In this document: positions 10,150-56,683 of the stretch, piece after piece
Layout of the letters: each line of letters opens with the position of its first letter
How positions within the stretch are numbered: the first letter of the stretch is position 1
Made by a program: the position numbers and the translations under genes
Notes under the pieces: model-generated
What the model saw: the letters and a program-made list of their open reading frames with translations, nothing else
Told to the model about the DNA's origin: nothing
Databases searched by the model: none
Assembly (NCBI GenBank): GCA_964608095.1
Contig: CAZSMK010000011.1
Location: 18,209-82,208 of the forward strand
DNA from: an uncultured Candidatus Sumerlaeota bacterium
Lineage (GTDB): Bacteria; Sumerlaeota; Sumerlaeia; MWCT01; JAGHBZ01
Direction: 5' to 3'
DNA length: 64,000 bases

Positions 10150-11169
10150 TTACAATTTCAAGCGGCTGGATGCGTTGGTGGTAAAATCTATGAACTTGCC
10201 TTTTTTGAGATAATGGAGTCCCTGACCCGCAATCATTGCAGCGTTGTCTGTACATAGAGAACGAGGTGGAATGAAGAGTTCACATGTTTTCAACCGCGTT
10301 CTGGACTGTTCTCGTAGTTGACTGTTGCTCGCCACGCCGCCCGCAATCACTACCCTCTTTAACCCAAAATGGTTTGCTGCGGCTTCCACCTTGGTAAGAA
10401 GCGAGTCGATAACAGCCTCCTGAAACGATGCACAAATATCGCGCAGTCGCATATCGTTGTTCTTTATTGTTTCCAAGCCTTCTTTACGGACATAGTTAAC
10501 AACGGCAGTTTTCAACCCGCTGAACGAAAAATTAAAATCGCCGGATTTGATGTGAGGACGAGGAAAGCTAACCGCGTTGGGATCGCCTTCATGCGCAAGG
10601 CAGTCGATAACCGGACCGCCCGGATAGCCCAGTTCGAGGAGTTTTGCCACCTTGTCGTATGCTTCGCCTGCCGCATCATCGAGGGTCTGCCCTACCTGTC
10701 GAAAATCGGTTGCCGAATACACCATCACAAGACTTGTATGACCCCCGGACACCACTAACCCCAGGTAAGGATACTCGGGCGCCTGACGAACGGAACTATC
10801 TTCCTGAAGGAATACGGAATAGAGATGTGCCGCCACATGGTTAATCCCGATAAGGGGTTTGTGGTAGGTAAAGCCGAGCGACTTTGCGGTCTCGAGTCCG
10901 ACGAGGAGCGACCCTATCAATCCTGGTCCGATAGTCACGGCAATGGCGTCAATACGGTCGAGCGAGACGTCGGCAGATTTCAAAGCCTCGTCGAGTACTG
11001 GTAGAATATTTCTTATATGCTCGCGCGATGCAAGCTCAGGTACAACTCCACCGTAAGGCGAATGAACCTTCACCTGCGACGATACCACATTGGAAACAAT
11101 CCAGATACCATCGCGGACAATTGCAGCCGCGGTCTCGTCGCATGAAGTTTCTATTCCCAGAATCAACAT
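10150..11169 (-). CDS. tsaD: tRNA N6-adenosine threonylcarbamoyltransferase TsaD
   Basis: LGIETSCDETAAA, GGVVPELASREH, HVAAH, VSGGHT, DDAAGEAYDKVAK, CTDNAAMIA. Confidence 0.97.
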   Translation of the reverse strand: MLILGIETSCDETAAAIVRDGIWIVSNVVSSQVKVHSPYGGVVPELASREHIRNILPVLDEALKSADVSLDRIDAIAVTIGPGLIGSLLVGLETAKSLGFTYHKPLIGINHVAAHLYSVFLQEDSSVRQAPEYPYLGLVVSGGHTSLVMVYSATDFRQVGQTLDDAAGEAYDKVAKLLELGYPGGPVIDCLAHEGDPNAVSFPRPHIKSGDFNFSFSGLKTAVVNYVRKEGLETIKNNDMRLRDICASFQEAVIDSLLTKVEAAANHFGLKRVVIAGGVASNSQLREQSRTRLKTCELFIPPRSLCTDNAAMIAGQGLHYLKKGKFIDFTTNASSRLKL

Positions 11170-11212
11170 TTTACTTTATTTTTCCCTCTCCATCACAGAA
11201 GAATCTATTGTT

Positions 11213-12667
11213 ATGGATTCTGTTAAAAAAAGTAAAGTGCGTATTGGCTTTGTGCTCTTTCTACTTGCGTTTGTGAACTACTCGTATTTTTTTCATCGTT
11301 CGCCCGGATGGAACGTTAATTCCCGCCTTGCGTTAACGTATGCTATAGTCGACGAAGGCATCTTAAAGATAGACCGCTACCACGAAGAAGGAGCGGTCGC
11401 GACAGGAGACAAGGCTTTTTTCGAGGGACATTATTATTCGGACAAAATGATCGGTGTATCGCTTCTCGGCGTTATCCCCTACGGATTGTCCCGTGTTTTT
11501 CTTGGTAAAGACGTTGCGCTGAGATTTCCTCATTATGCTCGGTATATCACGCGCGTATTCAGCGTTTCCCTCTGCGGCGCTCTGGCTGTTGTCGTTATGT
11601 ACCATATCCTTTTGCTCTTCGGTAGCGATATAGGTACTGCTGCATTTCTGGCGCTTCTTTTTGCATTCGGCACCATGTTTTTCCCCTATAGCACCGTCTT
11701 TTTCCCTTATGCGCCTGCGGTGCTTCTCAGTCTCCTTGCGTTCAGAAGCATTCTGAAATTAAAACCCGAGAGCCACACATTCAGCGACTTTTTTTTGATA
11801 GGTCTTTTTCTGGGCTTGACACTCCTCTTTGAATACATCTTCGGCTTGGTTGTCGCCGCATTACTCGTATACTTGATCGCGCTCAAGAAACCCCGCCCTG
11901 ATGAAATCCTGCTGTGCGGCGCAGGTATCTTTGCCGGACTAATACCTTTTTTCATATACTCGGTGGCAATTTTCGGAACTATTACGATTCCGTATAGCCA
12001 TGAAGCAGACCCTCTTTTCCGCGAAGGCATGTCCCGGGGATTTATGGGAATAACCGCACCGCGCCTTACCGTGCTCTATTATCTTACGATACACCCGTAC
12101 CGTGGGCTCTTTTTTCTTTCGCCCTTTCTCCTATTTTCGTTGTTGGGCGGCGTGGTGTGGCTGGCTCAAAAAAAGTTCGTACCGGAAACCATCCTGTGTC
12201 TTTCCCTTATAGTTTTGTACCTCTTGTTCAATTCTGCGTATTATATGTGGTGGGGAGGCTGGACAGCGGTACCCCGACACCTTATACCGATGATTCCGTT
12301 CATGATTCCTCTTCTCATACCAATCCTAAAAAGCAAGCGGTTGGTCAGGTACTTACTATACATTGGAATTTTTCTCGGTGTGTTCTTTTCCATTATTATA
12401 GCGGCAACAGACCCGCAAGAACCACAGGGCTACCAGACAGTATTTCTCCTCAACCCGCGCATCTCGTATAATTTCCAGAGCAGGGTCTTGTTTCGCCAGG
12501 CTCCTGACTTTATTCGCGGCGATATCGATCCAAACATCGGCTCTTTTATAGGTCTTCGAGGATTAACCACCCTTTTACCGCTTCTGCTCATTTCCGTCGT
12601 TCTCATTATCTGGATACGTATAAAGGTCATAGAGAAAGAGAGAGCGCCTGTTGAAAGACAGCACTGA
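11213..12667 (+). CDS. Polytopic membrane protein, GT-C-like
   Basis: The start is moved from the track's 11090 (which overlaps tsaD) to the in-frame ATG at 11213. First loop WNVNSRLALTYAIVDEG...GDKA...YYSDK, many TM helices, WWGGW..PRHL.P motif. Confidence 0.65.
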   Translation: MDSVKKSKVRIGFVLFLLAFVNYSYFFHRSPGWNVNSRLALTYAIVDEGILKIDRYHEEGAVATGDKAFFEGHYYSDKMIGVSLLGVIPYGLSRVFLGKDVALRFPHYARYITRVFSVSLCGALAVVVMYHILLLFGSDIGTAAFLALLFAFGTMFFPYSTVFFPYAPAVLLSLLAFRSILKLKPESHTFSDFFLIGLFLGLTLLFEYIFGLVVAALLVYLIALKKPRPDEILLCGAGIFAGLIPFFIYSVAIFGTITIPYSHEADPLFREGMSRGFMGITAPRLTVLYYLTIHPYRGLFFLSPFLLFSLLGGVVWLAQKKFVPETILCLSLIVLYLLFNSAYYMWWGGWTAVPRHLIPMIPFMIPLLIPILKSKRLVRYLLYIGIFLGVFFSIIIAATDPQEPQGYQTVFLLNPRISYNFQSRVLFRQAPDFIRGDIDPNIGSFIGLRGLTTLLPLLLISVVLIIWIRIKVIEKERAPVERQH

Positions 12668-12680
12668 ACAGTACCTGCAT

Positions 12681-14468
12681 TTAGTTTACGCTGTATAGAA
12701 CATAGCGATCGTTTTCATACAGTTTGCTGAAATCATAAGGTCGCAGGTCTGAAAAGGTCAGGAAATAATGCGCGCCAAATCGATGCGATAGACTGACGAC
12801 ATCCCCCTCAGACAGCATACGATAGCCACGATCAAGGAGAACCTTGACAGGCGCGGCAAAACGGATTTTATGAAGTAGCTCGAGGTAATGGTGACCATTG
12901 GCTTCATCTCCCGGTTCTGAGATATGAAAGTCTGCGGCTTGAAGCACGTTTCCCACCCTGCTGATACGATCAAACCAGCGAGCAAGTGCGGCGTTAGTGA
13001 ACGGCACCGCCTTGAAATCAACGACGCAGGAGCGTTCGGCATATACCCGGAAACCCTCCATATTCGGTGGTATTATAAAGATGGTTGTCGCCGATGTGTT
13101 CTCCTCAATCCAGGTGCAGATATCCTGATATGCTGATTCATCTGGTGCGATGCTTCGCCGGAAATGTTCATCGCGTCCCGTGAGCGCAGCTATCGGCGGA
13201 TTAAGGACACCGCGTCCGGCGCACACAAGAAGAAGCATTGCCGCCAGAGAAATATACACCATACTTTTTTGAAAGGAAGCGGGAACAGTCGGCAGCGAAA
13301 CAGATTTTGACGGAATTTTTCTGACAAACAGAAGATAAAAAACGAGGCTGAGAACGGCAAGAGGAATAAATATCCGTGGGATGCGGTACATAGCAATGAG
13401 GAGGATGCCGGGAATCGCTCCGCGATAACCAGAACGATCTATAAAATCAACCGCAAACCGTCCCAGATAAATGGATATAAATATAGTAAAAAGTACTGTC
13501 TGGCGAAAGCTTTGCAAATATGCAATAAATCCAACCGGAAAAATCTCCACAAAGATGACATGTATTAGACACATGATTGTGATATAGGCGAAGATTATGC
13601 GCTCGACAATTTTACCCTGCGATGGATACAAGACGCTCAACACCAACCAGAAGAGGGTGTAGCACGCAAATTCCGCTGTCATTAATGGGTGCCATGTGAA
13701 GGGGGAATGATGATGGGGATGACGAAACGCCAATATCTCGGCAACGGCGCTCCCGGATATTATGCGTTCCTGGGTCATATACTGCACTGCGGTGCTGAGG
13801 AGCGTCGGTGCACCCACAAGCAGACTTATGACAACGGCTGTCAGGATTGCGCGCTTGTGATGAGACATAAAGGGTATGAGAAGCACAAGAACAGCGAACA
13901 TGTGAAGACCGATAAAAAGATGTGCGTTGAACAAAATGCCCAGCGCAATTCCGGCATACAAAAAATAGGTTTTATTCTTCTCTGACATAATCAGGAAAGC
14001 GAGCATGAGAACGGCAAGAGAGAAGCCAAGAAAGTTCGCCTCGAAATGTGCAGCATGGGCATAATGACCACCCAACGATATGCGTGGAAAAAGAACAACT
14101 GCGATAAGGGCAAGATATCCGATCACCGCGCGACCGAACATCGCGTATGCCATCATAAATACTCCCGCACACAACAGGATACGTGTCACAATGTGTGAGA
14201 GAAGAAATGCAACATCTACCGGTATAAATCGCGATATATAACTCAAAGGAACAACAATGTTTGCATGCAGCATCGAAGTTGAAAGATAGAAATCGTGAGA
14301 AAGAAATTCGCCGGATGAGTTATACCACCATATCCAGGAAAGATATTCTATTGTATTCCCGGTGCCGAACTGATGACCCTGGAACAGAACAGATGCAAGA
14401 GCCAATATAATAATCCATAGAGCGAGATACAGCGTATGATCAAATGTTTTGTTCCCGGCTTTTTGCAT
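12681..14468 (-). CDS. Polytopic membrane protein with C-terminal soluble domain (GT-C-like, DUF6798-like C-terminus)
   Basis: Many TM segments. RHPHH loop. C-terminal WIEENT...FIIPP..EGFRVYAERSCVVDFKAVPF. Confidence 0.6.
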   Translation of the reverse strand: MQKAGNKTFDHTLYLALWIIILALASVLFQGHQFGTGNTIEYLSWIWWYNSSGEFLSHDFYLSTSMLHANIVVPLSYISRFIPVDVAFLLSHIVTRILLCAGVFMMAYAMFGRAVIGYLALIAVVLFPRISLGGHYAHAAHFEANFLGFSLAVLMLAFLIMSEKNKTYFLYAGIALGILFNAHLFIGLHMFAVLVLLIPFMSHHKRAILTAVVISLLVGAPTLLSTAVQYMTQERIISGSAVAEILAFRHPHHHSPFTWHPLMTAEFACYTLFWLVLSVLYPSQGKIVERIIFAYITIMCLIHVIFVEIFPVGFIAYLQSFRQTVLFTIFISIYLGRFAVDFIDRSGYRGAIPGILLIAMYRIPRIFIPLAVLSLVFYLLFVRKIPSKSVSLPTVPASFQKSMVYISLAAMLLLVCAGRGVLNPPIAALTGRDEHFRRSIAPDESAYQDICTWIEENTSATTIFIIPPNMEGFRVYAERSCVVDFKAVPFTNAALARWFDRISRVGNVLQAADFHISEPGDEANGHHYLELLHKIRFAAPVKVLLDRGYRMLSEGDVVSLSHRFGAHYFLTFSDLRPYDFSKLYENDRYVLYSVN

Positions 14469-14474
14469 AAACTA

Positions 14475-16841
14475 TTATTGTTCGCTATCCTCTATATTTT
14501 GAGTTCCCCTCAAGTCCATAGAGCCCTGGATTGGACTGCGTCTGACAGAATCGGCACCGCGTCTCGTCACTTTCTGTTGATATTCCTTTATATCTTCCTC
14601 TGAGAGAATCTCAATTTCGCCGAGTGCAATCCCAAGTTTATCGGCAGGTGTAATAATCGGTGGATCGACCCAGAACTCTATCAACTGATTATTGAGCGAA
14701 AAATCGTCGAAAACCACGACCGAAGATGAAAGCCCGCCGCCTTCCGAAGGCGGTATTGTCCTGTGGTGCGCTCTTTCGTTAAAAAGCAGCAGGATTGATT
14801 GACCGTCTTCGCAAATATAAATCAATCTCAAACCCTTTATCCCTTCGACAGAAGGCAGGATGATACGAAAATATTGTGAAGTCCAGCGGTAAGTGAACTC
14901 GAGCCCTCCCCAGACGCTACGCCCGCGAAAATCATCGAGGCAAAGAAACACGCTATCGCCGGGCACACCAACATCAAGCAAATGCGGTGTCTTGTCTGGA
15001 AGAACTATATCAGGCAGGTATTCGAACACGTAAGAATTTCCGCTCTTGAAGGCAAGTTTAAAGCCGGGTGAGAAGAAGAGATCGTCGGCATTGAGTTGAG
15101 GCACACGTCCCACCACATTTTTTGACGCACAAAATGCGTATGATATTCCCAGCCTTTTTGCTGCTTGACGTGCCTCGGGATTTTGTGCCAACAATGCGGC
15201 ATATCGCTGAACGATAAATATATCCTTGAGTACCTCATCACGTTTATCCGACGGCGCGGTTCCCCAGAGATAGGTCGTTGCCTTTCTATGCGTCAGAAAC
15301 GTAATCCATTCACCGATATCCTCACGCAAATTCGTGAGGACAATCGTATTCGGAGGTGTGTTATTCTTTATCCATTCAAAACATTCGAAATCCGATTCGG
15401 TTTGTGGAGCGTATTTGTCACGTGCCCCAACAAGAAACTGAATCATTGTCGGCGTAGTAATGCAGAGAGTCACTATACAGATGATGAGTAACAATATCAT
15501 AGCGAGCGATTGTGCTCGCTTGCTCAGGATATAGTACAATCCCGCTATGGAGAATAGAGGAAGAAAAAAGACCCAAAGGTAAAGGAGTCTGCCAGCCATG
15601 GGCCAGGGATGAATTCTCACCAGGAACGGCTTAAGCCAGGGAACAAGCCACAGAAACATGGAGATAACGACCGCTGCAAACGCAGTAAGCCAGAAAAGAT
15701 GTCTGCGTTTAAATAGTAAATACAGGATTCCGAAAAGAGCCAAAAAAGGCATGACATAGTTATTGTTCTCGGAAAAAGGGTGATACCAGAAGAAAAGTAT
15801 AAATTGCTGGATGTTCCCCGGCGATTCCTGATTCAGTTCCCAGATTTTTTGTGAACGCGGCATGAAAACACCGCCTTCTGATATTGACAACAAATCCGGT
15901 ATCGCAGGCAGAACAAGGATGAAAAACAGGAGTGAAGAAATGAAGAGAAGTTTTATAATATGCCCAAACTTACGAGACAAATAGCGAAAATGAAAGGGCA
16001 ATATAACCATGCCTATGAGAAATACCGAGAGGATATCAACTGGATGACTATAGATGAGGGCAACACTGAGAAGTACAAAGATGAACCAATTGGAAAGACA
16101 TTGTTTTTTTAGAGCGCTGAGAAGGGCATAAATAGAAGCGCCGACATACAGCACTCCCAGGGTTACCGTCCACCCCCCACCCCAGTAGACAATCATCGGG
16201 AACACAAAGGTGGTTGAGAAAAGAGCTGTCAGAAATGCGATCCGCCTATTTTGGACAATTACAGAAGTGAGCAAAAAAGCCGCGATCGGGAAAAGCGCCG
16301 CATGAAAGATGCTTAACTGCAGAATGAGCCGGGGCAGGGGTACCGGTACAAGTGAATATGCAAGTGCATTGACACAATGGAATGCATTGGGGTAAGGACG
16401 CGCTAAATGTACTGTACGGTTCTCCCATATATAATACGTGTACTCGCTGTGATTATAGGCATCGTCAACATGAGGCGGGACTATCTGCCCCGCAGCTACA
16501 ACTTCAAGTGTAAAGACAATAATAAGTGAAGGAATTAGAAGGTAGAAGTCGCGAAGAGCAGGTTTATCCAGATGTATCCTGTTTCTTGTCCAGAGATAGA
16601 TGAATGGAATCAGAAGAATAATGAGCAACACACCAAACGATAAAAGCGTGAACGGGAGATCGACAAAAGAAAGAAGAATCCCCCAGATAATGACGACGCC
16701 AAAGGAAAGAAGGACACCGTATAGAATCGCCTCCATGAGCGAGCGTATGCCCAGCATCAATGCAACGAGAAATCCGGGCATAACTGCGCACACTAAAAAC
16801 GCCATAAACGAGAGGATTACGTCTATAATGAAAGGATGCAT
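14475..16841 (-). CDS. Large polytopic membrane protein, GT-C-like (DUF6541-like), with extracytoplasmic C-terminal domains
   Basis: 788 aa. PPHVDDAYNH...YPNAFH loop, many TM helices, C-terminal WIKNNTPPNTIVLTN. Lies 6 nt upstream of the previous gene. Confidence 0.6.
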   Translation of the reverse strand: MHPFIIDVILSFMAFLVCAVMPGFLVALMLGIRSLMEAILYGVLLSFGVVIIWGILLSFVDLPFTLLSFGVLLIILLIPFIYLWTRNRIHLDKPALRDFYLLIPSLIIVFTLEVVAAGQIVPPHVDDAYNHSEYTYYIWENRTVHLARPYPNAFHCVNALAYSLVPVPLPRLILQLSIFHAALFPIAAFLLTSVIVQNRRIAFLTALFSTTFVFPMIVYWGGGWTVTLGVLYVGASIYALLSALKKQCLSNWFIFVLLSVALIYSHPVDILSVFLIGMVILPFHFRYLSRKFGHIIKLLFISSLLFFILVLPAIPDLLSISEGGVFMPRSQKIWELNQESPGNIQQFILFFWYHPFSENNNYVMPFLALFGILYLLFKRRHLFWLTAFAAVVISMFLWLVPWLKPFLVRIHPWPMAGRLLYLWVFFLPLFSIAGLYYILSKRAQSLAMILLLIICIVTLCITTPTMIQFLVGARDKYAPQTESDFECFEWIKNNTPPNTIVLTNLREDIGEWITFLTHRKATTYLWGTAPSDKRDEVLKDIFIVQRYAALLAQNPEARQAAKRLGISYAFCASKNVVGRVPQLNADDLFFSPGFKLAFKSGNSYVFEYLPDIVLPDKTPHLLDVGVPGDSVFLCLDDFRGRSVWGGLEFTYRWTSQYFRIILPSVEGIKGLRLIYICEDGQSILLLFNERAHHRTIPPSEGGGLSSSVVVFDDFSLNNQLIEFWVDPPIITPADKLGIALGEIEILSEEDIKEYQQKVTRRGADSVRRSPIQGSMDLRGTQNIEDSEQ

Positions 16842-16933
16842 ATTGTAACCGATAGTCTTATACCTTTATCAACACTCATCGTGTTTGGATAACTTTTTAC
16901 CTGCTCATTAACTGTAGCGGCTGCCTTTCACTT

Positions 16934-17395
16934 CTATTCCGTGTCTCGCTCTATGTTTTTTCTCTCCACATTACCTGATCCAAGTTCCTTAATCCGGTCC
17001 TGCAACATCTTTACCTCTGACAAAAGTATCGCCTGTTGTGACGCCATCTTGCGAATCGATCTTCTTTGTGAGGTAATAACAATCGAATACTGAACCTGAA
17101 GAGCAAGGAGAAAAAGTATACTGGATATAAACACTGTCGTTGTGGGAGCGACCGCACCAATCATGCGAGTCAAGAGTTCGAGCAAGCCAAACCAGACTAC
17201 TATCAAAAAAGTCGAGAGGATGGCAAAGAGCCAGAGCAAAGAGTACTCTTCAGCGATTTTGTGCCGCACGACCAGTGAAAGGATAAAGAGAAAAAGCATC
17301 GTCAGAATCACGAGCATAGCGATTTTTTGATGTAAAGTCGGACGAAACATTTCAGGCGTTGCGGAAGACAACGCATACATAAGAAAGATACTCAT
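16934..17395 (-). CDS. DUF2304-family small membrane protein (GacJ/Rv3632-like partner of GT2)
   Basis: Three TM segments, EYSLLW motif and a coiled-coil tail (IRKMASQQAIL). Overlaps the GT2 stop by 4 nt; the true start may be a later Met. Confidence 0.75.
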   Translation of the reverse strand: MSIFLMYALSSATPEMFRPTLHQKIAMLVILTMLFLFILSLVVRHKIAEEYSLLWLFAILSTFLIVVWFGLLELLTRMIGAVAPTTTVFISSILFLLALQVQYSIVITSQRRSIRKMASQQAILLSEVKMLQDRIKELGSGNVERKNIERDTE

Positions 17396-18418: not shown

Positions 18419-18691
18419 TTAGTCCAGGACCCAATCTACTCTATATACTTTCACACTATCCCGAAGTTGTATAAGAAACGTATGCTGGTCGCCAAGCGTT
18501 ATAACTTCCTTGATATCCTCCGCAGGGAGTGTACTGATGTGGAACACATCGACGTTGGGTTTACTTGATTTGGAAGTCCGCGCCTCAGCAGAACTGGAAA
18601 AGACGTCTATGCCTGTTTGTAACACAAGAGCAACCAAACACAGGGCAATTATTGTGAGTAGTATTTTGGTATACACTTCACTGAATTTCAT
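18419..18691 (-). CDS. Small secreted/membrane hypothetical protein
   Basis: GGAGG RBS upstream and an N-terminal hydrophobic segment YTKILLTIIALCLVALVL. Alternative GTG start at 18703. Confidence 0.7.
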   Translation of the reverse strand: MKFSEVYTKILLTIIALCLVALVLQTGIDVFSSSAEARTSKSSKPNVDVFHISTLPAEDIKEVITLGDQHTFLIQLRDSVKVYRVDWVLD

Positions 18692-18821
18692 TCTCGTAAT
18701 CACCTCCTGTACAAAATGTATCTCATCTGGTTCGTAAATTAGTTCACTCTAAAATACACAATTTATTCATATAATCGTGACAGGCGCCTGAGTATGTACG
18801 ATTCCATGTAAAACCACGCAT

Positions 18822-19202
18822 TCACTCACCGCGATAGATTTCTATTTTTTCTCCTTCTTTTGCTCTCTTGAGTAACGCAGGGTCACCCTCAATTTTTCCA
18901 ATGACATCGACTGGACTTGCCGGGCGAATCTCGTTACCCGAACTTATAGGGGTCGGTCCAAAGAAAAGACATAACGCCTTTCCCAACGGCCAGTACCCGA
19001 TATCGCCATAGGAAACAATATCCTTGGGTTCTTGAACTTTCAACTCCAGGGGAATAGTAAAATATATCTCATCGCCCCAGGTAGTGACTTTTCCCGATAT
19101 CGGAAGTGCGGCGAATATCTTACGTGCTAAGGTGGTATCATTAAGATGCGCATCAATATTCAGCCCCGCGACTTTTATTTCAATCTTTTTACCTGCCTGC
19201 AT
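18822..19202 (-). CDS. Cyclophilin-like fold protein (DUF369/TM1367-like)
   Basis: ALPI.G.V.TWGDEIYF, GDIGYWP.G.ALCLFFGPTP, PASPVDVIG. Confidence 0.85.
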   Translation of the reverse strand: MQAGKKIEIKVAGLNIDAHLNDTTLARKIFAALPISGKVTTWGDEIYFTIPLELKVQEPKDIVSYGDIGYWPLGKALCLFFGPTPISSGNEIRPASPVDVIGKIEGDPALLKRAKEGEKIEIYRGE

Positions 19203-19217
19203 GATCTTCTCGTCTCA

Positions 19218-20921
19218 TTATTCCGTTCCCCAATCTACAAATGTGATCATGCCGGGTTTGACAACAATTTCGCGCAGTCCATAAATCGTCGTCAATCCAT
19301 AAGTGCCGGGGATGACATCGCAAATTGCAAAGTTCTCATTCCATGCATCAGTACTATTGACTCCCTTGCCATACGTCATAGAAAATTGGTAACTCTGGCA
19401 ATAATCAGGCTTGGAAACCCCGGTTAGTCTTAATCCCGGTATGGGATCCCCATCCGGTTCAGCAATATGCCCCAGTATATATCCGACACTATCTCCCACG
19501 TGTTCAATATACAACTCGGGATTTCTGACAAAGTCACCTGTTTCGCCCCCTATTCGAACTTCAAATTCCAGTTCATTGTCTCTCGACTGCGCGTCAGCAT
19601 AGGAGGCGCCCGTTACACCAATCTCATCTCCCGCTTCCACTTGATCGCCCTTGGCGACTTTGATGGAAGCCAACTGTGCATATAAGGTATAGACATTATC
19701 ACCGTTCAGTTTTTCGTCATGCTCGATAAGCACATAATTGGGATAGGAACTCAAGGAACCTGCTTTTCCTGAATCATCCGCTTCAATAACTTTCCCGTTC
19801 GCCACTGCGCAAACAGGGGTTCCTGAATCCACCCTGAAAGAAATACCTTTTTTAACTGGCCATTCACCCCATGATTCTCCATAGAGCCATGTCTGATCGA
19901 TATGCCCATTCACCGGATTGAGAAAGGGAGGGATGAATTCTTCAGAAGGTTCGTCCCTGATCTCAACCTTTGTTTCAAGAGGAACGACAGGGGTAAAAGG
20001 CGTCGGGGTAGCAATCTCAGTCAACGGTTTAAGAACCGGTGTTGGTGGTGTCGCCTCGGGCAATAGTAAAGGTGATTCCGGCAAGGGACGAATCGGTTCT
20101 GCTGGTCTAATAGGTTTGAGTCCCGGAAGTGATGGGGGTAGAACCGTCTCCTGGGGAGCGGGTTCCGGTGCCTCGAGTTCAAAAGGAGATTCATAAAGCG
20201 AGGGGGTTGGTGTAGGAACTTTAATAGGCTTCAAAACCGGCGTTGGTTCTCCTATCTCGATACGTTCCTTCTTTTGCTCCATGTCAAGAATCGCCTTAAA
20301 AAGCGCTATGGCTATCCGATGGTTCTCCTCAAGATCATCTGCCGCTTTTCGACATTTCTTATTCGTGATAAATCCCACTGAAATTATTACCGCCGGGGAG
20401 ACTACATAATCGAATAGGGGGCGTTTGCCTGTATCCAGATACCGATAACTTGTGCCAAGTTCTCCTGCCATTTGTGTTAACATGTTTGAAATAGGCTCTT
20501 GCAAACTCACTTGATTCACATAGGCAGTGATATAATTAACGCTTTTGTCGCGGCTATAGTTATGATGTATTCCAATAAAGAGGTCGGGGTTATGAGGGGC
20601 ACTAATTTCGGCTCGCTCTTTTAGCCCTGGAAAAGGAGGCGTATGTGTCTTTCGGGTAAGAATAACCTCTGCACCGGCATCTTCGAGATAAGAACGAAGG
20701 AAAAATGCAATACGAAGGTTGGCTTCCCTCTCCATTCTTTGCAACTTGTCGGTCACAAGCGCTGTCCTGTCCTCACCTGAATACATCTCACCACCCTCAC
20801 CGGCATCGAGACAATATGTCATATCTTTCAACGGCTTTTCGAGCATTTGTCCCATACAGAGTGAGAACACCATGACAAAAAGACCCATAGTACAAATAAT
20901 ATTTCGATTTCGGGAAACCAT
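19218..20921 (-). CDS. Secreted amidase_3 + Pro-rich linker + M23/LytM + beta-sandwich fusion; both catalytic domains degenerate
   Basis: Amidase scaffold LDAGEGG/EREANL/FIGIHHN/PAVIISVGF. M23 scaffold KKGISF..GTPVCAV/YAQL/ELEFEVR. N-terminal signal-like segment. Confidence 0.8.
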   Translation of the reverse strand: MVSRNRNIICTMGLFVMVFSLCMGQMLEKPLKDMTYCLDAGEGGEMYSGEDRTALVTDKLQRMEREANLRIAFFLRSYLEDAGAEVILTRKTHTPPFPGLKERAEISAPHNPDLFIGIHHNYSRDKSVNYITAYVNQVSLQEPISNMLTQMAGELGTSYRYLDTGKRPLFDYVVSPAVIISVGFITNKKCRKAADDLEENHRIAIALFKAILDMEQKKERIEIGEPTPVLKPIKVPTPTPSLYESPFELEAPEPAPQETVLPPSLPGLKPIRPAEPIRPLPESPLLLPEATPPTPVLKPLTEIATPTPFTPVVPLETKVEIRDEPSEEFIPPFLNPVNGHIDQTWLYGESWGEWPVKKGISFRVDSGTPVCAVANGKVIEADDSGKAGSLSSYPNYVLIEHDEKLNGDNVYTLYAQLASIKVAKGDQVEAGDEIGVTGASYADAQSRDNELEFEVRIGGETGDFVRNPELYIEHVGDSVGYILGHIAEPDGDPIPGLRLTGVSKPDYCQSYQFSMTYGKGVNSTDAWNENFAICDVIPGTYGLTTIYGLREIVVKPGMITFVDWGTE

Positions 20922-20966
20922 TATTCTCCTCCTCGTAGTGAAATTGTATTAATATGATGCTTCATT

Positions 20967-21644
20967 TTAATCATCTACTCTTCCACCTTCCAGCTTAATC
21001 TTGTTAAGGTAGGCGATAAGAGATTTTTTTGAAATAGCAAGATGCTTCTGCACAAGTTTCTGAATTCGTTTACTATCATGATCCTTGAATGCATCTATAA
21101 TATTTTTATGTTCGAATAACGCAGAGTTAACGCGACTTTTATCGGTAAACACAAACCGCCGGTATCTATCGAGTTTATGGTTCAAATTAACCACCATTTC
21201 TCTCAAGAGATCGTTGCTACACAAAGAGATGTACCATTGATGGAAAGCACTGTTGGCCTCGATTTTTTCCATCTGGTCATCTACCTGTTCGAAGCTTTTT
21301 TCAAGAACTTCGAGATGCCGGATGTGTTCTCCCTTCATGCGATCAGAAGCCACTTTTGCCGCAAGCGGTTCGAGAGATATCAGGACATCATAGATTTCCC
21401 CCACCTCTTTTATTGAATAGGGCGCAACTATTGCACCTTTACGCGGAAAAAATTTGACCAATCCTTCGGTCTCGAGTTTGAGAAGCGCCTCGCGTACCGG
21501 TGTACGGCTCACTCCCAGTTTATCTGCGATTTCCGGCTCGATTAAGCGTTCGCCAGGTGACAAATCACCCCTGATAATCGCATCTCGTAATAAGCGCGTA
21601 ATATCCTTTCGTAAAGGATCATGTCTGCTCAAATCAAGTTTCAT
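20967..21644 (-). CDS. GntR-family transcriptional regulator (FCD domain)
   Basis: wHTH PGERLIEPEIADKLGVSRTPVREAL; FCD-type NSAFH and EHKNII. Confidence 0.9.
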   Translation of the reverse strand: MKLDLSRHDPLRKDITRLLRDAIIRGDLSPGERLIEPEIADKLGVSRTPVREALLKLETEGLVKFFPRKGAIVAPYSIKEVGEIYDVLISLEPLAAKVASDRMKGEHIRHLEVLEKSFEQVDDQMEKIEANSAFHQWYISLCSNDLLREMVVNLNHKLDRYRRFVFTDKSRVNSALFEHKNIIDAFKDHDSKRIQKLVQKHLAISKKSLIAYLNKIKLEGGRVDD

Positions 21645-21660
21645 GTCTATACCACCATTG

Positions 21661-22662
21661 CTATTGTTTATCCCAATGGATACACCGTACTTTGTGTCCG
21701 GGAGTTACCTCCTCCATCGGGGGGATTTCCTTTATACATTCAGGAGTCATCAAAGGGCATCTCGGATGAAAGCGGCATCCGGCTGGATAATGAACAGGGT
21801 CGGGAACCATTCCCGGAATCACGGACAAATCCTTTCCTTCAATAACACGCTCAAGGTTGGGCATCGACTCGAGTAATAATCTGGTATAGGGATGGAGCGG
21901 TTTGTTGAACAACTCGGTTGTCGATGCTTCTTCGACAATCATACCCGCATACATGACGAGCACTGAATCGGCGATTTCGGCTATGATCCCGAAATTATGC
22001 GTAATAATCAGAATCGCGGTCTGAAATTCCTCCTGGAGTTCTTTCATAAGGTCGAGAACCTGAGCTTGCACAGTAACATCGAGAGCGGTCGTTGGTTCAT
22101 CTGCAATAAGGAGAGCAGGTTTACACGCAAGCGCCATGGCAATCATGGCGCGTTGCAGCATGCCACCGCTTAACTGATGAGGATAATCGTCCACACGTTG
22201 CTCAGGAGAAGGAATCCTGACCCGGTCAAGCAGTCGAATCGACTCCTCCCGTGCCTGACGTCGCGTCATGCCCTGGTGTAATCGCAACACCTCCGATATC
22301 TGGCTGCCTATCGTATAGACAGGATTGAAAGAGGTCATGGGTTCCTGAAAAATCATTGATATATCATTACCCCGGATTCTTCTCAACTCTCGAGTCGGAA
22401 GCGCAAGCAAATCTTTTCCACGCAAAAAAATCTTACCATCTATTATTTTCCCCGGTGGTTCCGGAACAAGGCGCAGAATTGATAATGCAGTCATGGTTTT
22501 CCCTGAACCGGATTCTCCTACCAGACCGATTGTCCGCTGTTCATAAACCTCGAATGATACACCATCCACTGCTCTCGCAGTGCCTTCGAGGGTTTTGAAA
22601 TAGGTACGAAGGTTGCGTATCTCGAGCAACGTCGGAGAATCACTATGTACGTCTGCAATCAC
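21661..22662 (-). CDS. Oligopeptide/dipeptide ABC transporter ATP-binding subunit (OppD/DppD)
   Basis: GESGSGKT, YPHQLSGGM, DEPTTALD, PLHPYT, C-terminal CRFHPRC..C. Confidence 0.92.
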   Translation of the reverse strand: MIADVHSDSPTLLEIRNLRTYFKTLEGTARAVDGVSFEVYEQRTIGLVGESGSGKTMTALSILRLVPEPPGKIIDGKIFLRGKDLLALPTRELRRIRGNDISMIFQEPMTSFNPVYTIGSQISEVLRLHQGMTRRQAREESIRLLDRVRIPSPEQRVDDYPHQLSGGMLQRAMIAMALACKPALLIADEPTTALDVTVQAQVLDLMKELQEEFQTAILIITHNFGIIAEIADSVLVMYAGMIVEEASTTELFNKPLHPYTRLLLESMPNLERVIEGKDLSVIPGMVPDPVHYPAGCRFHPRCPLMTPECIKEIPPMEEVTPGHKVRCIHWDKQ

Positions 22663-22767
22663 ACTATATGCCCTGTGGTTATATTGAACCTTTATTCAAA
22701 AATCCAAGCAATACTCTGAAATAGTCACGAAAAATGTCAAGCCTAAACACATTATTTCGCTGTCCTA

Positions 22768-23883
22768 TCACCGTCCGAGTTCATGACGTGGGTCCAGCGC
22801 ATCACGTATCCCGTCTCCAAGAAAGTTGAACGCAAACACGGTTATAAAAATCATTACACCCGGTATGAGTATCCATGGGTAGTTGGTAAGTACGATCACA
22901 TTCTGGGCTTGTTTCAACATATTCCCCCAGCTGGCATAAGGTTCATCGATGCCCACACCCAGATAGCTCAAGGCGACTTCCCCGAGAATATAGCCGGGTA
23001 CCGAAAGAGTCGAAGCGATAATCACATAGGTTAAGGTATTGGGTATAATATGCCGTATAATGATTCTAACGCTTGAAGCGCCCAGCGCACGAGCGCTCAA
23101 TACATATTGTTCCTCCCTTATTCTTAATGTCATTCCGCGTATGACCCTTGCAGGACCGACCCAGTAAATCAAACCCAGCACCGCTACAATCAGAAGATAT
23201 ATCTGTGTTGCTGACAGGTCCTCAGGAAACGTAGCCCGAATGGCAATAATCAGATAGAGACCCGGTATGGAGAGAATAAACTCGACGAAACGCATCATGA
23301 TGATATCAAAAACGCCGCCGAAATATCCGGAGAGTCCTCCCATGACCATGGCAAGCGTAAACGTGATTAAAATCCCTATTAAACCAATGGATAGAGATAT
23401 CTGCGAACCCTCGAGGAGGCGTGAAAAGACATCCCGCCCCAGCTCATCCGTACCCGCAAGGTGTATACTTGCCGGCTTTTCCACACCGAAAAGATGTATA
23501 TCACATGGTATTAAGCCGAAAAGGTTATATTCATATCCTCTAACAAAAAATTTGACCAAATATTTCTTGTCCTCGACTGGCTCGTACCGACCGCTGTCAA
23601 GATCTATCATTTCATAGCGGTATACAAAGGGACGGAGGGAAAATCCACCTTCCCGGTCAACAAAATGTAATGATGTGGGCGGATGATAAAAATCGATGAG
23701 GTCCTGTTCGTGCGGATGGTAGGGACTAAGAAAAGGAGCAAACAAGGCGCCGAAATAGAGAATAATCAATACAACCCCGCCTATGATGGCAATTTTATTT
23801 CGAACCAACCGGCGAAACATCAATGCCCAGGGCGAGTAGCTGTGCGTTCTCACTCTCTTTTCTATATTTGAGTTGATCTTCAT
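22768..23883 (-). CDS. Oligopeptide/dipeptide ABC permease (OppC/DppC) with long extracytoplasmic loop
   Basis: GTDELGRDVFSR, EEQYVLSARALGAS, SYLGVG..PYASWG, NFLGDGIRDALDP. Confidence 0.9.
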   Translation of the reverse strand: MKINSNIEKRVRTHSYSPWALMFRRLVRNKIAIIGGVVLIILYFGALFAPFLSPYHPHEQDLIDFYHPPTSLHFVDREGGFSLRPFVYRYEMIDLDSGRYEPVEDKKYLVKFFVRGYEYNLFGLIPCDIHLFGVEKPASIHLAGTDELGRDVFSRLLEGSQISLSIGLIGILITFTLAMVMGGLSGYFGGVFDIIMMRFVEFILSIPGLYLIIAIRATFPEDLSATQIYLLIVAVLGLIYWVGPARVIRGMTLRIREEQYVLSARALGASSVRIIIRHIIPNTLTYVIIASTLSVPGYILGEVALSYLGVGIDEPYASWGNMLKQAQNVIVLTNYPWILIPGVMIFITVFAFNFLGDGIRDALDPRHELGR

Positions 23884-23892
23884 TTGTTCTGT

Positions 23893-24864
23893 TTATTCGA
23901 GCCTGATTCGCGGATCGGAAACCGCGGTGAGTATATCCGCAATGAGATTACCTATTATCAACATCACTGAAGACATAAGCACCGTTGCAACCACCAGGTA
24001 CATATCCTTGGTGAAAAGGGCTTCGATGGTGGTTCTCCCGAGCCCCGGATAACTGAATACAACCTCCACCAGAAAAGAGCCCGCAAGAAGACTGGACAGA
24101 GAATATCCGAACATCGTAATAAGAGGGTTGATAGCATTACGAGTTGCATGTTTGACAACTACGGTAAATTCCGGTAAGCCTTTAGCCCGTGCGACTGTCA
24201 CAAAATCCGCTCGAAGATAGTCAAGGAGGTTCCCCCGCATCTGGCGCATGTAACTCGCCATACCTGACGTCCCAAGTACTATAGTCGGCAAGACCAGGTG
24301 ATGCGCGATGTCCAGCATTTTTCCCAATGTCCCGAGTTCTTCGTAATTTATCGAACGCAGTCCACCGGTGGGAAACCAGCCGCTCACCTTAGCAAACAAG
24401 ACCATCAAGAGTGCGAAAAAGACATTCGGTATAGACAAGCCGAAAAAGGCTATCGCCGATGATATTTTATCGATCCACCGATATTGATATACCGCGCTCA
24501 AAATACCCAGGGGGATTGACACTATCCATGCAAACAGGATTGCGCTCGCGGAGAGAAGCAAAGTATTCAAGGCGCGCTCCTTGATTACACGGAACACAGG
24601 TTGGTTTGTGCTAAAAGAATACCCGAAATCAAGGTGAAACACCACATTCTTCAACCACCTACCATACCTGACATACCAGTGAGGATTATCAAGTCCCAAC
24701 CGTTTCATCTCCTGATCGATAACTTCCTGGCTTATCTGTGGATTCATCTTCATCGTGGAAAGAAAATCTCCGGGTGTTCGGTTAATGAGAAAAAAGGTCA
24801 CCAGCGAGATAAAAAATAGCAACGGTATGGCATGAAGAAATCTTTTCAGGATAAAAGTTTTCAT
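23893..24864 (-). CDS. Oligopeptide/dipeptide ABC permease (OppB/DppB)
   Basis: LGLDNP.YVRY, DFGYS, ADFVTVARAKGL, HATRNA, GNLIADIL..DPRIR. Confidence 0.92.
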   Translation of the reverse strand: MKTFILKRFLHAIPLLFFISLVTFFLINRTPGDFLSTMKMNPQISQEVIDQEMKRLGLDNPHWYVRYGRWLKNVVFHLDFGYSFSTNQPVFRVIKERALNTLLLSASAILFAWIVSIPLGILSAVYQYRWIDKISSAIAFFGLSIPNVFFALLMVLFAKVSGWFPTGGLRSINYEELGTLGKMLDIAHHLVLPTIVLGTSGMASYMRQMRGNLLDYLRADFVTVARAKGLPEFTVVVKHATRNAINPLITMFGYSLSSLLAGSFLVEVVFSYPGLGRTTIEALFTKDMYLVVATVLMSSVMLIIGNLIADILTAVSDPRIRLE

Positions 24865-24882
24865 GGTTTCGCTTCTTATGAA

Positions 24883-24897
24883 CGTATCCTGGATACG
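24883..24897. promoter_or_regulatory. 15-bp palindrome CGTATCC-T-GGATACG, candidate operator upstream of the opp genes
   Basis: Perfect 7-bp inverted repeat about 20 nt upstream of the oppB start. Confidence 0.35.
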
Positions 24898-24960
24898 CGT
24901 TATAAACCCGATTGAATCAGCCTGTATTGAAATCGAAAGTATGCCACGCCCTTTTTCTTC

Positions 24961-25980
24961 TTACAACAAAAGGTTTTTTCTCCTTTTATATTGAAGCAGC
25001 AGGAAGAGAAAAAAAGGACCGCCTGATAAAGCCGTAATCACCCCAACCGGAAGTTCGAGTGGCGCTATTATTGTACGCGCCAGTGTATCGGCAATCATCA
25101 AAAACGCCCCTCCGGTTAACCCGCTACAAGGAATCAGCAACCTATGATCCGAACCGACGATAAAGCGAACTATATGCGGGATTATTAAACCCACGAAGCC
25201 GATAGGTCCACATACCGACACCACACCTGCGGTTATGACGGAAGCGGCAAGAAATATCAATTTCTGCGCATGGTTGACATCAATACCGAGATGCTGAGCC
25301 GTGGACTCGTCAAGGGTCAATATATTGAGAGCACGCGTGTGCAGCAAAAGAACAGCGCTTCCTGCGAAAAGTGTAATTGCCACTATGCCGAGCTGGCTAT
25401 AGCCGGCAATGTCGACTGCACCCATCATCCAGCGTATCATCTGGTATGCTTCGCCCGGCGCGCTGATATACTGAATAAGCAGAATTACGGCGGAAAAGAG
25501 AAAGTTCAGGGTCACGCCGGCAAGGAGCAACGTAGCAGGATTCAAGCCGCCACGCTCTTTTGACAACAGGTAGACAACACTGACGGCGATCAAAGCACCA
25601 ACGAGGGCAAAGAGAAAAAGAGCCGGCGCCGCCATCAGGGTAAATGCTAAACCGATTTTAATCGCGATAACCGCACCCAGGCTGCTTCCTGCAGAAATGC
25701 CAAGAACATAGGGACTGGCAAGAGGATTTTTGAGCAACGCCTGGAACGCGGCTCCTGCAAGCGCCAAACCAAAGCCCGCAAAGGCTGCGAGCACCATGCG
25801 CGGAATCCTTAACTGCCAGAATATCACCTGCTGTGGACTTGTTTCATGAACAGCAAAGACTTGCGGGGGTGTGAGAAATGTCGCACCTATCCACGGCGTT
25901 ATTATTCCCGCCACTATAAACAGGATCAAACACACACCGACATTGATGATAAATCGCCTATATGTGAGCTCCCTTCCCAT
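24961..25980 (-). CDS. FecCD/BtuC-family iron-chelate/cobalamin ABC permease
   Basis: WQLRIPR, FQALLKNPLASPYVLGISAG, GPIGFVGLIIPH, ELPVG.ITAL.GGPFF. Confidence 0.9.
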   Translation of the reverse strand: MGRELTYRRFIINVGVCLILFIVAGIITPWIGATFLTPPQVFAVHETSPQQVIFWQLRIPRMVLAAFAGFGLALAGAAFQALLKNPLASPYVLGISAGSSLGAVIAIKIGLAFTLMAAPALFLFALVGALIAVSVVYLLSKERGGLNPATLLLAGVTLNFLFSAVILLIQYISAPGEAYQMIRWMMGAVDIAGYSQLGIVAITLFAGSAVLLLHTRALNILTLDESTAQHLGIDVNHAQKLIFLAASVITAGVVSVCGPIGFVGLIIPHIVRFIVGSDHRLLIPCSGLTGGAFLMIADTLARTIIAPLELPVGVITALSGGPFFLFLLLQYKRRKNLLL

Positions 25981-49931: not shown

Positions 49932-51062
49932 TCATCGTTTGCTGCTTGTTCTTTTCCGTGTGCTCATTTTTTCCTGCAGTTCAATATACTTCATGGCGGC
50001 AAACACCTCGGCAAATCTGGCTCTCCGCCCTGTTGACAATTCAACTGTTCTGTCAAGGTAAGGACCTATGACGAGGTTGACACCTTCAAATCCCTCGGGC
50101 GCTTTTGAATAAAGTTCTTCAAGCACGGAAGAGAGCTCTTTTTCCTTTTCAATATCGAGTGATTTAAGTTCCTGAACCAGTTCTGCAAGCTCAGGTGGAG
50201 GGTCGTGCTTAGCGTTACTCCACGCGGCAACAATGGGTAAGTAGACAGATGTCATCGATCCGGATTTAATATCCACTTTCCCCGAAGCGAAGCCGGGCTT
50301 GTTATCGTTTGCAAAAAGACTGATGTACACTGTCCCTTCGGGAAGTCCATAAATAGTAGAGCGTCCTGCAGGCATGCGGTTTCCGCCGATCATGTTTTTC
50401 ATAAACTCACCACCCCATGCGGCAAAACCCAAAATCGGATCTGCTCGCGGCGGTGCTGTGCTTATCACCATGTAGATGTCATCATTGGGCGCATCTTCGT
50501 CGATTCGCAGTATACCGTTTCCTGAAGGTGAAATCCTCATTGTCACTACCGAACCGGTGGTGAGTCTTATATTATCTGCCACTCCGAAGAGTGCTATTTC
50601 CTCACCATTGACATCGAGCAAGCTCTTGACTGAATCCGCATCCTTCCATGTTTGGGCGACCAGACGATAACGTCCGATAGGAATGTGCTCGAACGCGAAA
50701 GCACCGTTATCGTCAGTTGTCCTGTGCTCGAGTTTATCCGTAAATGTACCGAGCATAATGGAGAATGTGAAAGGAATATACGAGTCGCGTGCGATAGGAA
50801 TTCCCGTGCCCTCATCGCATAGCGCCACTTGAACACCCGCAGCAGGTTTCCCTTCTCTATCAAAAACAAATCCCTTTATGGTTCCTTTTGCTTCCGGCAC
50901 TTCACGTTTAATATAAGAGGGTATAGGCCGCTCCGTTTTCTCAGACCTTGATGGTGTGCTTCTCTGTCCTGCAGCGTGGTAAGTACTTAAGGATAAAAGC
51001 ACAAAAGAAAAGATCAAATGAACCCAACTGTATCCTTTGAAGAAATTATGTGTTCGACACAT
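49932..51062 (-). CDS. Secreted protein with carboxypeptidase-regulatory-like beta-sandwich domain(s)
   Basis: Signal peptide; GTIKGFVFDREGKPAAGVQV...TTDDNGAFAFEHIPIGRYRLVA. Confidence 0.65.
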   Translation of the reverse strand: MCRTHNFFKGYSWVHLIFSFVLLSLSTYHAAGQRSTPSRSEKTERPIPSYIKREVPEAKGTIKGFVFDREGKPAAGVQVALCDEGTGIPIARDSYIPFTFSIMLGTFTDKLEHRTTDDNGAFAFEHIPIGRYRLVAQTWKDADSVKSLLDVNGEEIALFGVADNIRLTTGSVVTMRISPSGNGILRIDEDAPNDDIYMVISTAPPRADPILGFAAWGGEFMKNMIGGNRMPAGRSTIYGLPEGTVYISLFANDNKPGFASGKVDIKSGSMTSVYLPIVAAWSNAKHDPPPELAELVQELKSLDIEKEKELSSVLEELYSKAPEGFEGVNLVIGPYLDRTVELSTGRRARFAEVFAAMKYIELQEKMSTRKRTSSKR

Positions 51063-51121
51063 TCTTGAACCTCCTATAACAGAATAATTAAAACGCTCAT
51101 ACTATTCTGAGAAATAAGCCC

Positions 51122-56585: not shown

Positions 56586-56683
56586 GATTATTTTTTCGTT
56601 CTATAAATTACGCCCTTCATGACAAATCGCGGCTTTCAAGATTTTAATTCTTTAAAAGGATATTTTTACATCGAACTCCATGA

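Follow-up and report, generated by a model that had tools for sequence, protein, structure and literature searches.

In a 64,000-nucleotide stretch of DNA from an uncultured Candidatus Sumerlaeota bacterium (assembly GCA_964608095.1, contig CAZSMK010000011.1, positions 18,209 to 82,208; hereafter the window), we analyzed a gene, referred to here as the target, whose product joins an Amidase_3 domain and a Peptidase_M23 (LytM) domain in one polypeptide, both of them stripped of catalytic residues. It belongs to a same-strand run that comprises, in this order, a FecCD-type permease, OppB, OppC, OppD, a GntR/FCD regulator, the target, a cyclophilin-like gene, an open reading frame (ORF) of 94 codons, GT2, and DUF2304, with gaps of 15-45 bp around the target. 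The target ORF has a single stop codon, located at its end, and stays open across 567 codons. From the N- to the C-terminus, the protein is composed of a signal segment, Amidase_3, a Pro-rich disordered linker, Peptidase_M23/LytM, and a transthyretin/CnaB-like beta-sandwich; the Amidase_3 and M23 domains are the only ones that Pfam recognizes in it. The AlphaFold2 (AF2) model, calculated from an alignment of 72 sequences, has a mean predicted local distance difference test score (pLDDT) of 82.8, and its N-terminal helix (residues 2-28), amidase domain, M23 domain, and C-terminal domain are all predicted with confidence. The coordinates of these features are given in Table 1.

Table 1. Features of the target gene and its neighbors in the window, followed by two related genes on another contig.
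Feature	Position	Strand	Basis or remark
Target coding sequence	19218..20921	minus	567 aa plus stop; ORF list, Pfam, AF2 model
Ribosome-binding site GAGGAGGAG	20926..20934	minus	4 nt 5' of the target ATG; read from the upstream sequence
N-terminal signal or anchor segment, residues 1-25	20847..20921	minus	Hydrophobicity, AF2 helix 2-28, orthologue alignment
Dead Amidase_3 domain, residues 37-212	20286..20813	minus	Pfam, CwlD/CwlV alignments, Foldseek
Disordered Pro-rich linker, residues 223-335	19917..20255	minus	Composition, motifs, pLDDT
Dead LytM/Peptidase_M23 domain, residues 336-470	19512..19916	minus	Pfam, alignments to active M23 peptidases and DipM, Foldseek
C-terminal transthyretin/CnaB/carboxypeptidase-regulatory-like beta-sandwich, residues 476-567	19221..19496	minus	AF2, Foldseek
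Cyclophilin-like gene (PF04126)	18822..19202	minus	Pfam, E 1.7e-41; 15 bp downstream of target
GntR/FCD regulator	20967-21644	minus	Pfam; upstream of target
OppD	21661-22662	minus	Pfam; best NCBIfam match for the ATPase is OppD
OppC	22768-23883	minus	Pfam
OppB	23893-24864	minus	Pfam
Dead/dead P0003 gene	L001:8001-9674		Contig logan SRR14699989_7304
Live/dead P0225 gene	L049:8001-9497		Contig logan SRR14699989_7304

The amidase domain matches the Amidase_3 profile (PF01520) with an E-value of 2.1e-20 and 73.9 bits against a cut-off of 27, over profile positions 2-173 of 174. Its closest folds in the PDB, as found by Foldseek, are those of CwlV, CwlD, LytH, and AmiC2 (1jwq, 7rag, 7tj4, and 5emi), with template modeling (TM) scores of 0.71-0.79 relative to the target structure (for CwlV, E-value 8e-12 and TM 0.76 on the same scale), and its best NCBIfam match, TIGR02883 (CwlD), reaches 45.4 bits, below the equivalog cut-off of 221.55. 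The active-site positions of Amidase_3 are defined by the LytH ligands H128, E145, and H193 plus the conserved E255 (PMC9245657). When the target is aligned with the CwlD of C. difficile (7rag), DAGHGG reads DAGEGG, with E42 (20796-20798, codon GAG) in place of the first zinc-ligand His (His1), and PsvlIEcGF reads PAVIISVGF, with S181 (20379-20381) in place of the catalytic Glu. The ligand Glu (E64, 20730-20732) and the second ligand His (H119, 20565-20567, in GIHHN) are kept, that is, two of the three zinc ligands are still present, and the protein lacks the full set of His-Glu-His ligands plus catalytic Glu that characterizes active Amidase_3 enzymes.

The loss is more complete in the M23 domain. 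Pfam places Peptidase_M23 at residues 357-460 (E-value 7.7e-19, 68.1 bits against a cut-off of 28.7), and the Foldseek matches of the domain in the PDB are LytM, EnvC, and DipM, with TM scores of 0.72-0.80 (0.76-0.80 to LytM and EnvC). In the alignment with the active M23 peptidase 9gy1, hnGiD reads KKGIS, where K357 (19851-19853) stands for His and S361 (19839-19841) for Asp; YgHv reads YAQL, where Q416 (19674-19676) replaces the catalytic His; and HLHFE reads ELEFE, where E450 (19572-19574) and E452 (19566-19568) each replace a His. All five metal or catalytic residues of an active M23 peptidase (HxxxD, HxH, and the His of YxHL) are consequently gone.

The N-terminal segment has a basic n-region, a hydrophobic core at residues 8-24, and the small residues C-M-G preceding Q25; residues 8-26 are the most hydrophobic 19-mer of the protein and its sole strongly hydrophobic stretch. 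Orthologues show the AXA-like sequences SIA/Q and SFA/Q where the segment of the target ends, from which we infer that it is cleaved. Inspection of the target and its orthologues revealed no lipobox at this point, and no membrane or outer-membrane anchor was recognized in the target sequence. The linker spans 113 residues, of which 27% are Pro, contains two copies each of PVLKP and TPTP, and scores as disordered in the model (pLDDT under 50 from about residue 242 to 320); its DNA was checked for tandem repeats and none were found. The last 96 residues (472-567), modeled separately, are predicted to form a seven-stranded sandwich with a pLDDT of 89.6, whose best Foldseek matches are CnaB-type pilin domains and the regulatory domains of carboxypeptidases D, N, and M, at TM scores of 0.5-0.64 and weak E-values (2e-3 or weaker). 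The same general class of sandwich is present elsewhere in the window, in a different hydrolase context, in a 376-residue CarboxypepD_reg protein that adjoins a subtilase (Peptidase_S8) at 49932-52345 on the minus strand. An earlier note, made from the window sequence, had described an amidase reading DAGE and PAVIIS with only EREANL and GIHHN left, an M23 domain reading KKGIS, YAQL, and ELE, a signal segment, a Pro/Thr linker of about 110 residues with PVLKP and TPTP, and a C-terminal beta-sandwich, all on intact scaffolds and without a frameshift. Pfam, the alignments and codons, and the AF2 model agree with this description in every detail.

It is important to consider that a protein that has lost all the canonical M23 catalytic residues and two of the four amidase ones could be the product of a decaying gene copy without function. 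A word-indexed search gave six two-domain relatives of the target, and when 1.84 billion cluster representatives were scanned exhaustively with phmmer, 28 proteins reached E <= 1e-30, most of them with both domains. Our residue counts rest on 21 representatives of the clade with dead amidases (the dead clade), seven of a group with live amidases, and six M23-only relatives, and it must be kept in mind that a sampling of 28 representatives is thin. The double loss is common to the 21 cluster representatives: each of them has a degenerate M23 domain and an amidase in which His1 and the catalytic Glu are missing. Orthologues at 47-51% identity to the target carry the same losses, and the frames are open in all full-length members despite identities below 50%. 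Every family member that bears a taxon name is assigned to Candidatus Sumerlaeota, and the two-domain loci found in GTDB species genomes come, in five cases out of five, from metagenome-assembled genomes of Sumerlaeota.

The ratio of nonsynonymous to synonymous substitution rates (dN/dS, Nei-Gojobori) was calculated between the loci L001 and L006, which share 72% amino-acid identity and are the closest pair with usable synonymous divergence. The values are 0.108 for the amidase, 0.031 for M23, 0.23 for the linker, and 0.107 overall; they are rough, given that dS is 1.4-3.4, near saturation, and that all other pairs are saturated. Because the losses are shared and dN/dS is about 0.1, rough as this figure is, the recent-pseudogene explanation is refuted; the intact frame of 567 codons, the strong ribosome-binding site, and the confident prediction of both folds also speak against it. 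The comparison thus indicates that the double-dead state is old and is held by purifying selection and not decaying, as the earlier note had argued from the intact scaffolds; the check that it proposed, namely whether orthologues conserve the substitutions under purifying selection, came out in its favor.

The relatives also provide information about the origin of this architecture. Among single-domain relatives, the nearest are about 350 residues long and come almost entirely from Chloroflexota; in them the same sandwich follows an active M23 domain, and H...D/E, H, and HxH are retained with few exceptions. Many of these proteins (P0008-P0064), otherwise intact, read HxxxE instead of the canonical HxxxD, and a few (P0016 and P0024) have independently lost several catalytic residues. 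Among the two-domain proteins, seven more distant representatives (P0089, P0092-P0095, P0097, and P0098, the last one annotated as Candidatus Sumerlaeia) share the target's layout of signal, Amidase_3, Pro-rich linker, dead LytM, and beta-sandwich, and retain an intact amidase set, H/E/H/E, next to a LytM domain that is already dead. Since these seven relatives combine both conditions, the ancestral form is, as judged by sequence comparison, a live amidase fused to a dead LytM.

Neighbor-joining trees with bootstrap, in which the M23-only proteins served as outgroup, recover the two-domain proteins as monophyletic with respect to the M23-only proteins in 100% of the bootstraps, and the outgroup-rooted point estimate places the live forms at the base and the dead forms in one clade. 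When the catalytic columns were removed, the split between dead and live forms had a support of 91% from the amidase and 86% from the concatenated domains. A single loss of the amidase function is the best reading of these trees, not a settled one. Two points weigh against it: the support for the same split falls to only 11.5% when M23 and the sandwich alone are used, and most of the evidence for a single loss is contributed by the amidase domain, in which relaxation common to the dead copies could be mistaken for relatedness. A RecD2-like helicase gene is found directly upstream of both the live P0089 and the dead P0090 (L050:5561-7873 and L055:3925-6177); it may be the trace of a gene order common to the live and dead lineages and, if real, this shared order is relevant to the choice between one and several losses of the amidase.

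Both forms can coexist in one genome, since a 91,087-bp contig (logan SRR14699989_7304) holds the dead/dead target orthologue P0003 and, about 44 kb apart from it, the live/dead P0225, which shares 98% identity with P0097 and whose H/E/H/E set is intact. The fusions with live amidases have a gene context unlike that of the target. A KARI/ilvC-type gene follows the live P0225, and a gene for a protein of 332 residues likewise follows the P0225 orthologue P0098 (L053). Four kilobases upstream of P0225 lies the gene of an NlpD-like lipoprotein of 281 residues (L049:3389-4234) with a LIGC lipobox, a LysM-like N-terminal segment, and a degenerate M23 domain (N..D, Y-L-H), that is, a conventional-looking LytM factor in the same Sumerlaeota genome. 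We also considered a functional reason for the ABC (ATP-binding cassette) permeases that precede both paralogues (L049), an idea that was rejected, as the P0098 locus is without them.

The dead and live groups differ in where they are constrained. At amidase position 42 (His1), the dead clade has 12 different residues and never His, and at position 181 (the catalytic Glu) it has Ser in nine members, Val in four, Asn in three, Cys and Ile in two each, and Asp in one, whereas the live group has His and Glu, respectively, in seven out of seven; the second His, at position 119, is kept in 15 of the 21 dead members and in all seven live ones. In the M23 domain, position 357 is Lys (14) or Arg (7) in the dead clade, Gln (5) or Arg (2) in the live group, and His in all six M23-only proteins. 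Position 361 is Ser in 21 out of 21 dead members, variously Ser, Cys, Ile, Asp, or Tyr in the live group, and Glu (4) or Asp (2) in the M23-only proteins. Glu occupies position 450 in 20 and position 452 in 18 of the 21 dead members; in the live group these positions are Ala, Asn, Gln, or Thr and Gln, Val, Arg, Lys, or Leu, respectively, and the M23-only proteins have His at both (6/6 each). The K/R-S-E-E set is therefore specific to the clade with dead amidases. Mean pairwise identities are 31% for the amidase, 45% for M23, and 39% for the sandwich in the dead clade, and 38%, 34%, and 28%, respectively, in the live group.

These counts indicate that, in the dead clade, the catalytic positions of the amidase have drifted freely, while the LytM groove has gained a new, near-fixed set of residues. 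The amidase scaffold has been retained (dN/dS about 0.1), though under less constraint than M23. Because the groove set is near-fixed and M23 is the most conserved part, the LytM groove and the sandwich together appear to form the functional center of the dead/dead proteins. The live-amidase sister fusions, the live paralogue in the same genome, and this re-specified groove go beyond the earlier note and are not visible from the sequence of the window alone.

The near-invariance of the four groove positions is also what would be expected from a catalytic site. The protein could still be an enzyme, with Lys/Arg, Ser, and two Glu forming a new metal-independent or differently metallated center, or with a metal held by E42, E64, and H119; the target copy is alone in the dead clade in having a carboxylate at position 42, and some residual metal binding in this copy, with E42 as the third ligand, is conceivable. 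We consider continued catalysis very improbable. Position 357 alternates between Lys and Arg, which argues against a Ser-Lys dyad, the general base of the amidase has been replaced by any of six residues, and position 42 by any of 12; we know of no LytM fold on which carboxylates carry out catalysis.

Known systems offer several points of comparison. EnvC, NlpD, and ActS of E. coli and DipM of Caulobacter are catalytically dead LytM proteins that activate autolysins; EnvC, NlpD, and DipM act on the regulatory, autoinhibitory helix of AmiA/B/C-type amidases. Their accessory modules are a coiled coil in EnvC, LysM in NlpD and DipM, and a lipoprotein signal in NlpD and ActS. Like these LytM factors, the target retains the M23 fold without any of its metal and catalytic residues, and its export is predicted. 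Unlike them, it carries an amidase-fold domain and a transthyretin-like sandwich in the same chain, it is without coiled coil, LysM, or lipobox, and its AF2 model has no long helices beyond the amidase domain and the N-terminus. Its scores against the corresponding NCBIfam models all fail the cut-offs: 30.7 against 270 for EnvC, 19.1 against 311 for NlpD, 29.8 against 375 for ActS, and 33.1 against 740 for DipM. Dead LytM domains that work through protein-protein contact are also known from the enzyme/pseudoenzyme LytM pair Csd1-Csd2 of Helicobacter and from SpoIIQ, which is among the weak sequence matches of the target; unlike these single-domain LytM proteins, the target is multidomain.

In DipM, AmiC, the lytic transglycosylases SdpA/B, and CrbA all dock in a groove around the degenerate site, and function is abolished when this groove is mutated (PMC10336132). 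The target family resembles DipM in that the groove around the degenerate site is its most conserved part, and by analogy with this docking groove the target would most likely have a trans-acting role like that of a LytM factor. The degenerate patterns themselves differ (K..S/Q/E-x-E in the target and N..N/H/Q-L-H in DipM), which points to independent degeneration, and the closest relatives of the target outside the fusion family are the active M23 + sandwich proteins of Chloroflexota, not LytM factors.

On the amidase side, the nearest resemblance is to the short amidases CwlD, CwlV, and LytH, which provide the best sequence and fold matches: the domain of the target is likewise compact and without the AmiA/B/C insert, and it differs from these enzymes, which keep H/E/H plus Glu, in having neither His1 nor Glu. 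CwlD and LytH need the partners GerS and ActH, a dependence that does not involve displacement of a helix (PMC9245657). A regulatory insert or helix of the AmiA/B/C type was sought in the amidase domains of the target and of all family members, live or dead, and none was found; the profile match of the target is continuous, and across the family only 62-77 residues separate the second His from the position of the catalytic Glu. Any regulation of the family's amidases would therefore need another mechanism. For the same reason, EnvC-style activation of the target's own amidase domain was rejected: with no autoinhibitory helix in any member, the protein cannot work by pulling such a helix from its own amidase domain.

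A regulatory amidase homologue is also known from Mycobacterium, namely CwlM, in which PG_binding_1 repeats are present. CwlM resides in the cytoplasm, is itself phospho-regulated, and acts as a regulator of MurA instead of a wall hydrolase (PMC4946905). The target shares with CwlM the Amidase_3 fold and, as proposed here, a non-hydrolytic role. Unlike CwlM, it has a LytM domain and no PG_binding_1, it lacks the first zinc ligand and the catalytic Glu, and its N-terminal hydrophobic segment predicts export instead of a cytoplasmic location. Dead LytM regulators such as EnvC, NlpD, and DipM and a regulatory amidase homologue such as CwlM were thus already known separately; the target family unites the two in a single polypeptide. 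The earlier note knew of no characterized protein that joins a dead amidase and a dead LytM, and our full-text literature search likewise found no description of a natural Amidase_3-dLytM (dead LytM) fusion, nor of a doubly dead one.

Taken together, a non-catalytic peptidoglycan-binding regulator or scaffold is our best reading of the target, whose biological role is predicted from sequence. Stated in full, the target would be a secreted, non-catalytic, peptidoglycan-associated double pseudoenzyme that acts as a LytM-factor-like regulator or as a peptidoglycan-binding adaptor, a proposal to which we give about an even chance. In this proposal, the working part would be the re-specified LytM groove with the sandwich that always follows it, forming a docking surface either for peptidoglycan itself or for a peptidoglycan hydrolase or other envelope partner in trans. 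The amidase, although dead, would have been kept for substrate binding or targeting without cutting, and the linker, whose length varies between 44 and 293 residues among dead-clade relatives, could be an extended spacer that allows the two ends to reach different places in the wall. The likeliest partner would be the live amidase-dLytM paralogue or another autolysin. The general part of the role suggested in the earlier note, a peptidoglycan-binding regulator or scaffold, agrees with this reading; its example of an amidase decoy fused to an EnvC-like activator does not stand, given the absence of an AmiA/B/C insert and scores far under the EnvC, NlpD, ActS, and DipM cut-offs.

Several observations weigh against this proposal, in addition to the roughness of the dN/dS values. 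The K/R-S-E-E set may be structural, the Lys or Arg cation being paired with two carboxylates that fill the former zinc site, in which case it says nothing on docking; a new docking or ligand site is one of two open readings of the set. The gene neighborhood, when the dead subclades are compared, gives no family-wide partner. Finally, no live paralogue or helix-bearing amidase was found in the 64 kb of the genome that the window covers. The window contains 35 ORFs of 300 residues or more, and the Pfam scan covered 26 of them, all below position 56,600, as well as nine shorter neighbors; of the remaining large ORFs, five lie beyond 56,600, three overlap larger ORFs, and one is the target, which was scanned separately. 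The scanned ORFs include no further amidase, M23, or SBP_bac_5 gene.

The existence of a live paralogue with the same architecture is also compatible with another role, in which the target is a passive peptidoglycan binder whose dead domains keep their affinity for the substrate and which, as a structural tether, shield, or decoy, occupies stem peptides and cross-links and so restricts the sites open to cutting by its competitor, the live paralogue, and by endopeptidases, without any protein-protein regulation. The scaffolds and much of the active-site loop of the amidase (D39, G41, G43, E64, H120, and P176) are conserved in the dead clade, two of the three zinc ligands are retained, and a long spacer separates the two wall-binding ends. 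This role would be difficult to reconcile with the low conservation of the amidase, which varies more within the dead clade than any other folded part, contrary to what one would expect if the main function were substrate binding by this domain; moreover, the clade-specific K/R-S-E-E set points to a gained interaction and not to a retained substrate site, and the protein has no anchor to the membrane or outer membrane for tethering. We regard passive binding as a possible, somewhat unlikely explanation. A more specific version of the regulatory proposal, in which the K/R357-S361-E450-E452 groove is a new docking site that switches the live paralogue or another autolysin on or off, is advanced only tentatively and is, in our estimation, unlikely. 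If it were true, the paralogue pair would give Sumerlaeota a control of wall cleavage unlike the FtsEX-EnvC/NlpD-AmiABC circuit, without an autoinhibitory helix.

The neighboring genes suggest a different role, that of an accessory to the adjacent oligopeptide ABC importer, which would capture or present wall peptides for recycling, possibly with the cyclophilin-like protein and under the control of GntR. The order OppB-OppC-OppD-target-cyclophilin-like, with all genes on the same strand and separated by short gaps, is kept in six Sumerlaeota loci (L001 and L006-L010) as well as in the window, with GntR between OppD and the target in three of the six; across these loci the target is 29-49% identical and its neighbors 52-80%. 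The tightest conserved neighbor is the cyclophilin-like gene, which follows the target in all six; its product has no signal peptide and no NCBIfam name. Its linkage is confined to the subclade of the target: three other subclades with dead amidases (P0082, P0090, and P0084) have unrelated neighbors, and the cyclophilin-like gene is not adjacent to any of them. Furthermore, the transporter in L009 has its own, normal SBP_bac_5 binding-protein gene upstream of OppB, both hydrolase sites of the target are dead and cannot release wall peptides, and a promoter and terminator scan gave counts not above those of shuffled sequences. A role as importer accessory is therefore quite improbable. Because the neighbors in other subclades are unrelated and L009 has its own SBP_bac_5, the Opp/cyclophilin-like linkage is a lineage-specific gene order and is weak as functional evidence; we have downgraded it as a clue accordingly. 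The related idea that the target substitutes for the Opp binding protein was rejected on account of the L009 gene.

Other genes of the window deserve a brief mention. The peptide ABC cluster (21661-25980) comprises two permeases and one ATPase, with no SBP_bac_5 and no second ATPase among the scanned ORFs, and the place of the OppA-type gene of L009 is occupied by a lone FecCD/BtuC-type permease. The 94-residue ORF (18419-18703, minus strand) encodes an N-terminal hydrophobic segment and has no Pfam or NCBIfam match; in L001, L006, and L007 a counterpart at 57-66% identity likewise lies downstream of the cyclophilin-like gene, and none is found there in L008-L010. Farther downstream, at 12681-17395 on the minus strand, a GT2 glycosyltransferase with DUF2304, an ORF of 788 residues without a Pfam match, and a DUF6798 protein of 595 residues may constitute an envelope-glycan module, and a PMT-like glycosyltransferase gene is located at 11090-12667 on the plus strand.

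The significance of this family lies in the series of states that it preserves, from active M23 + sandwich proteins, through a live amidase with a dead LytM, to the dead/dead proteins with a re-specified groove. This series constitutes a natural experiment on hydrolases turning into regulators, in which one site decays freely and the other, once rebuilt, is the part of the protein under the strongest constraint. The pair of live/dead and dead/dead paralogues is an expressible target for biochemistry, and the family shows how an uncultivated phylum may control autolysis.

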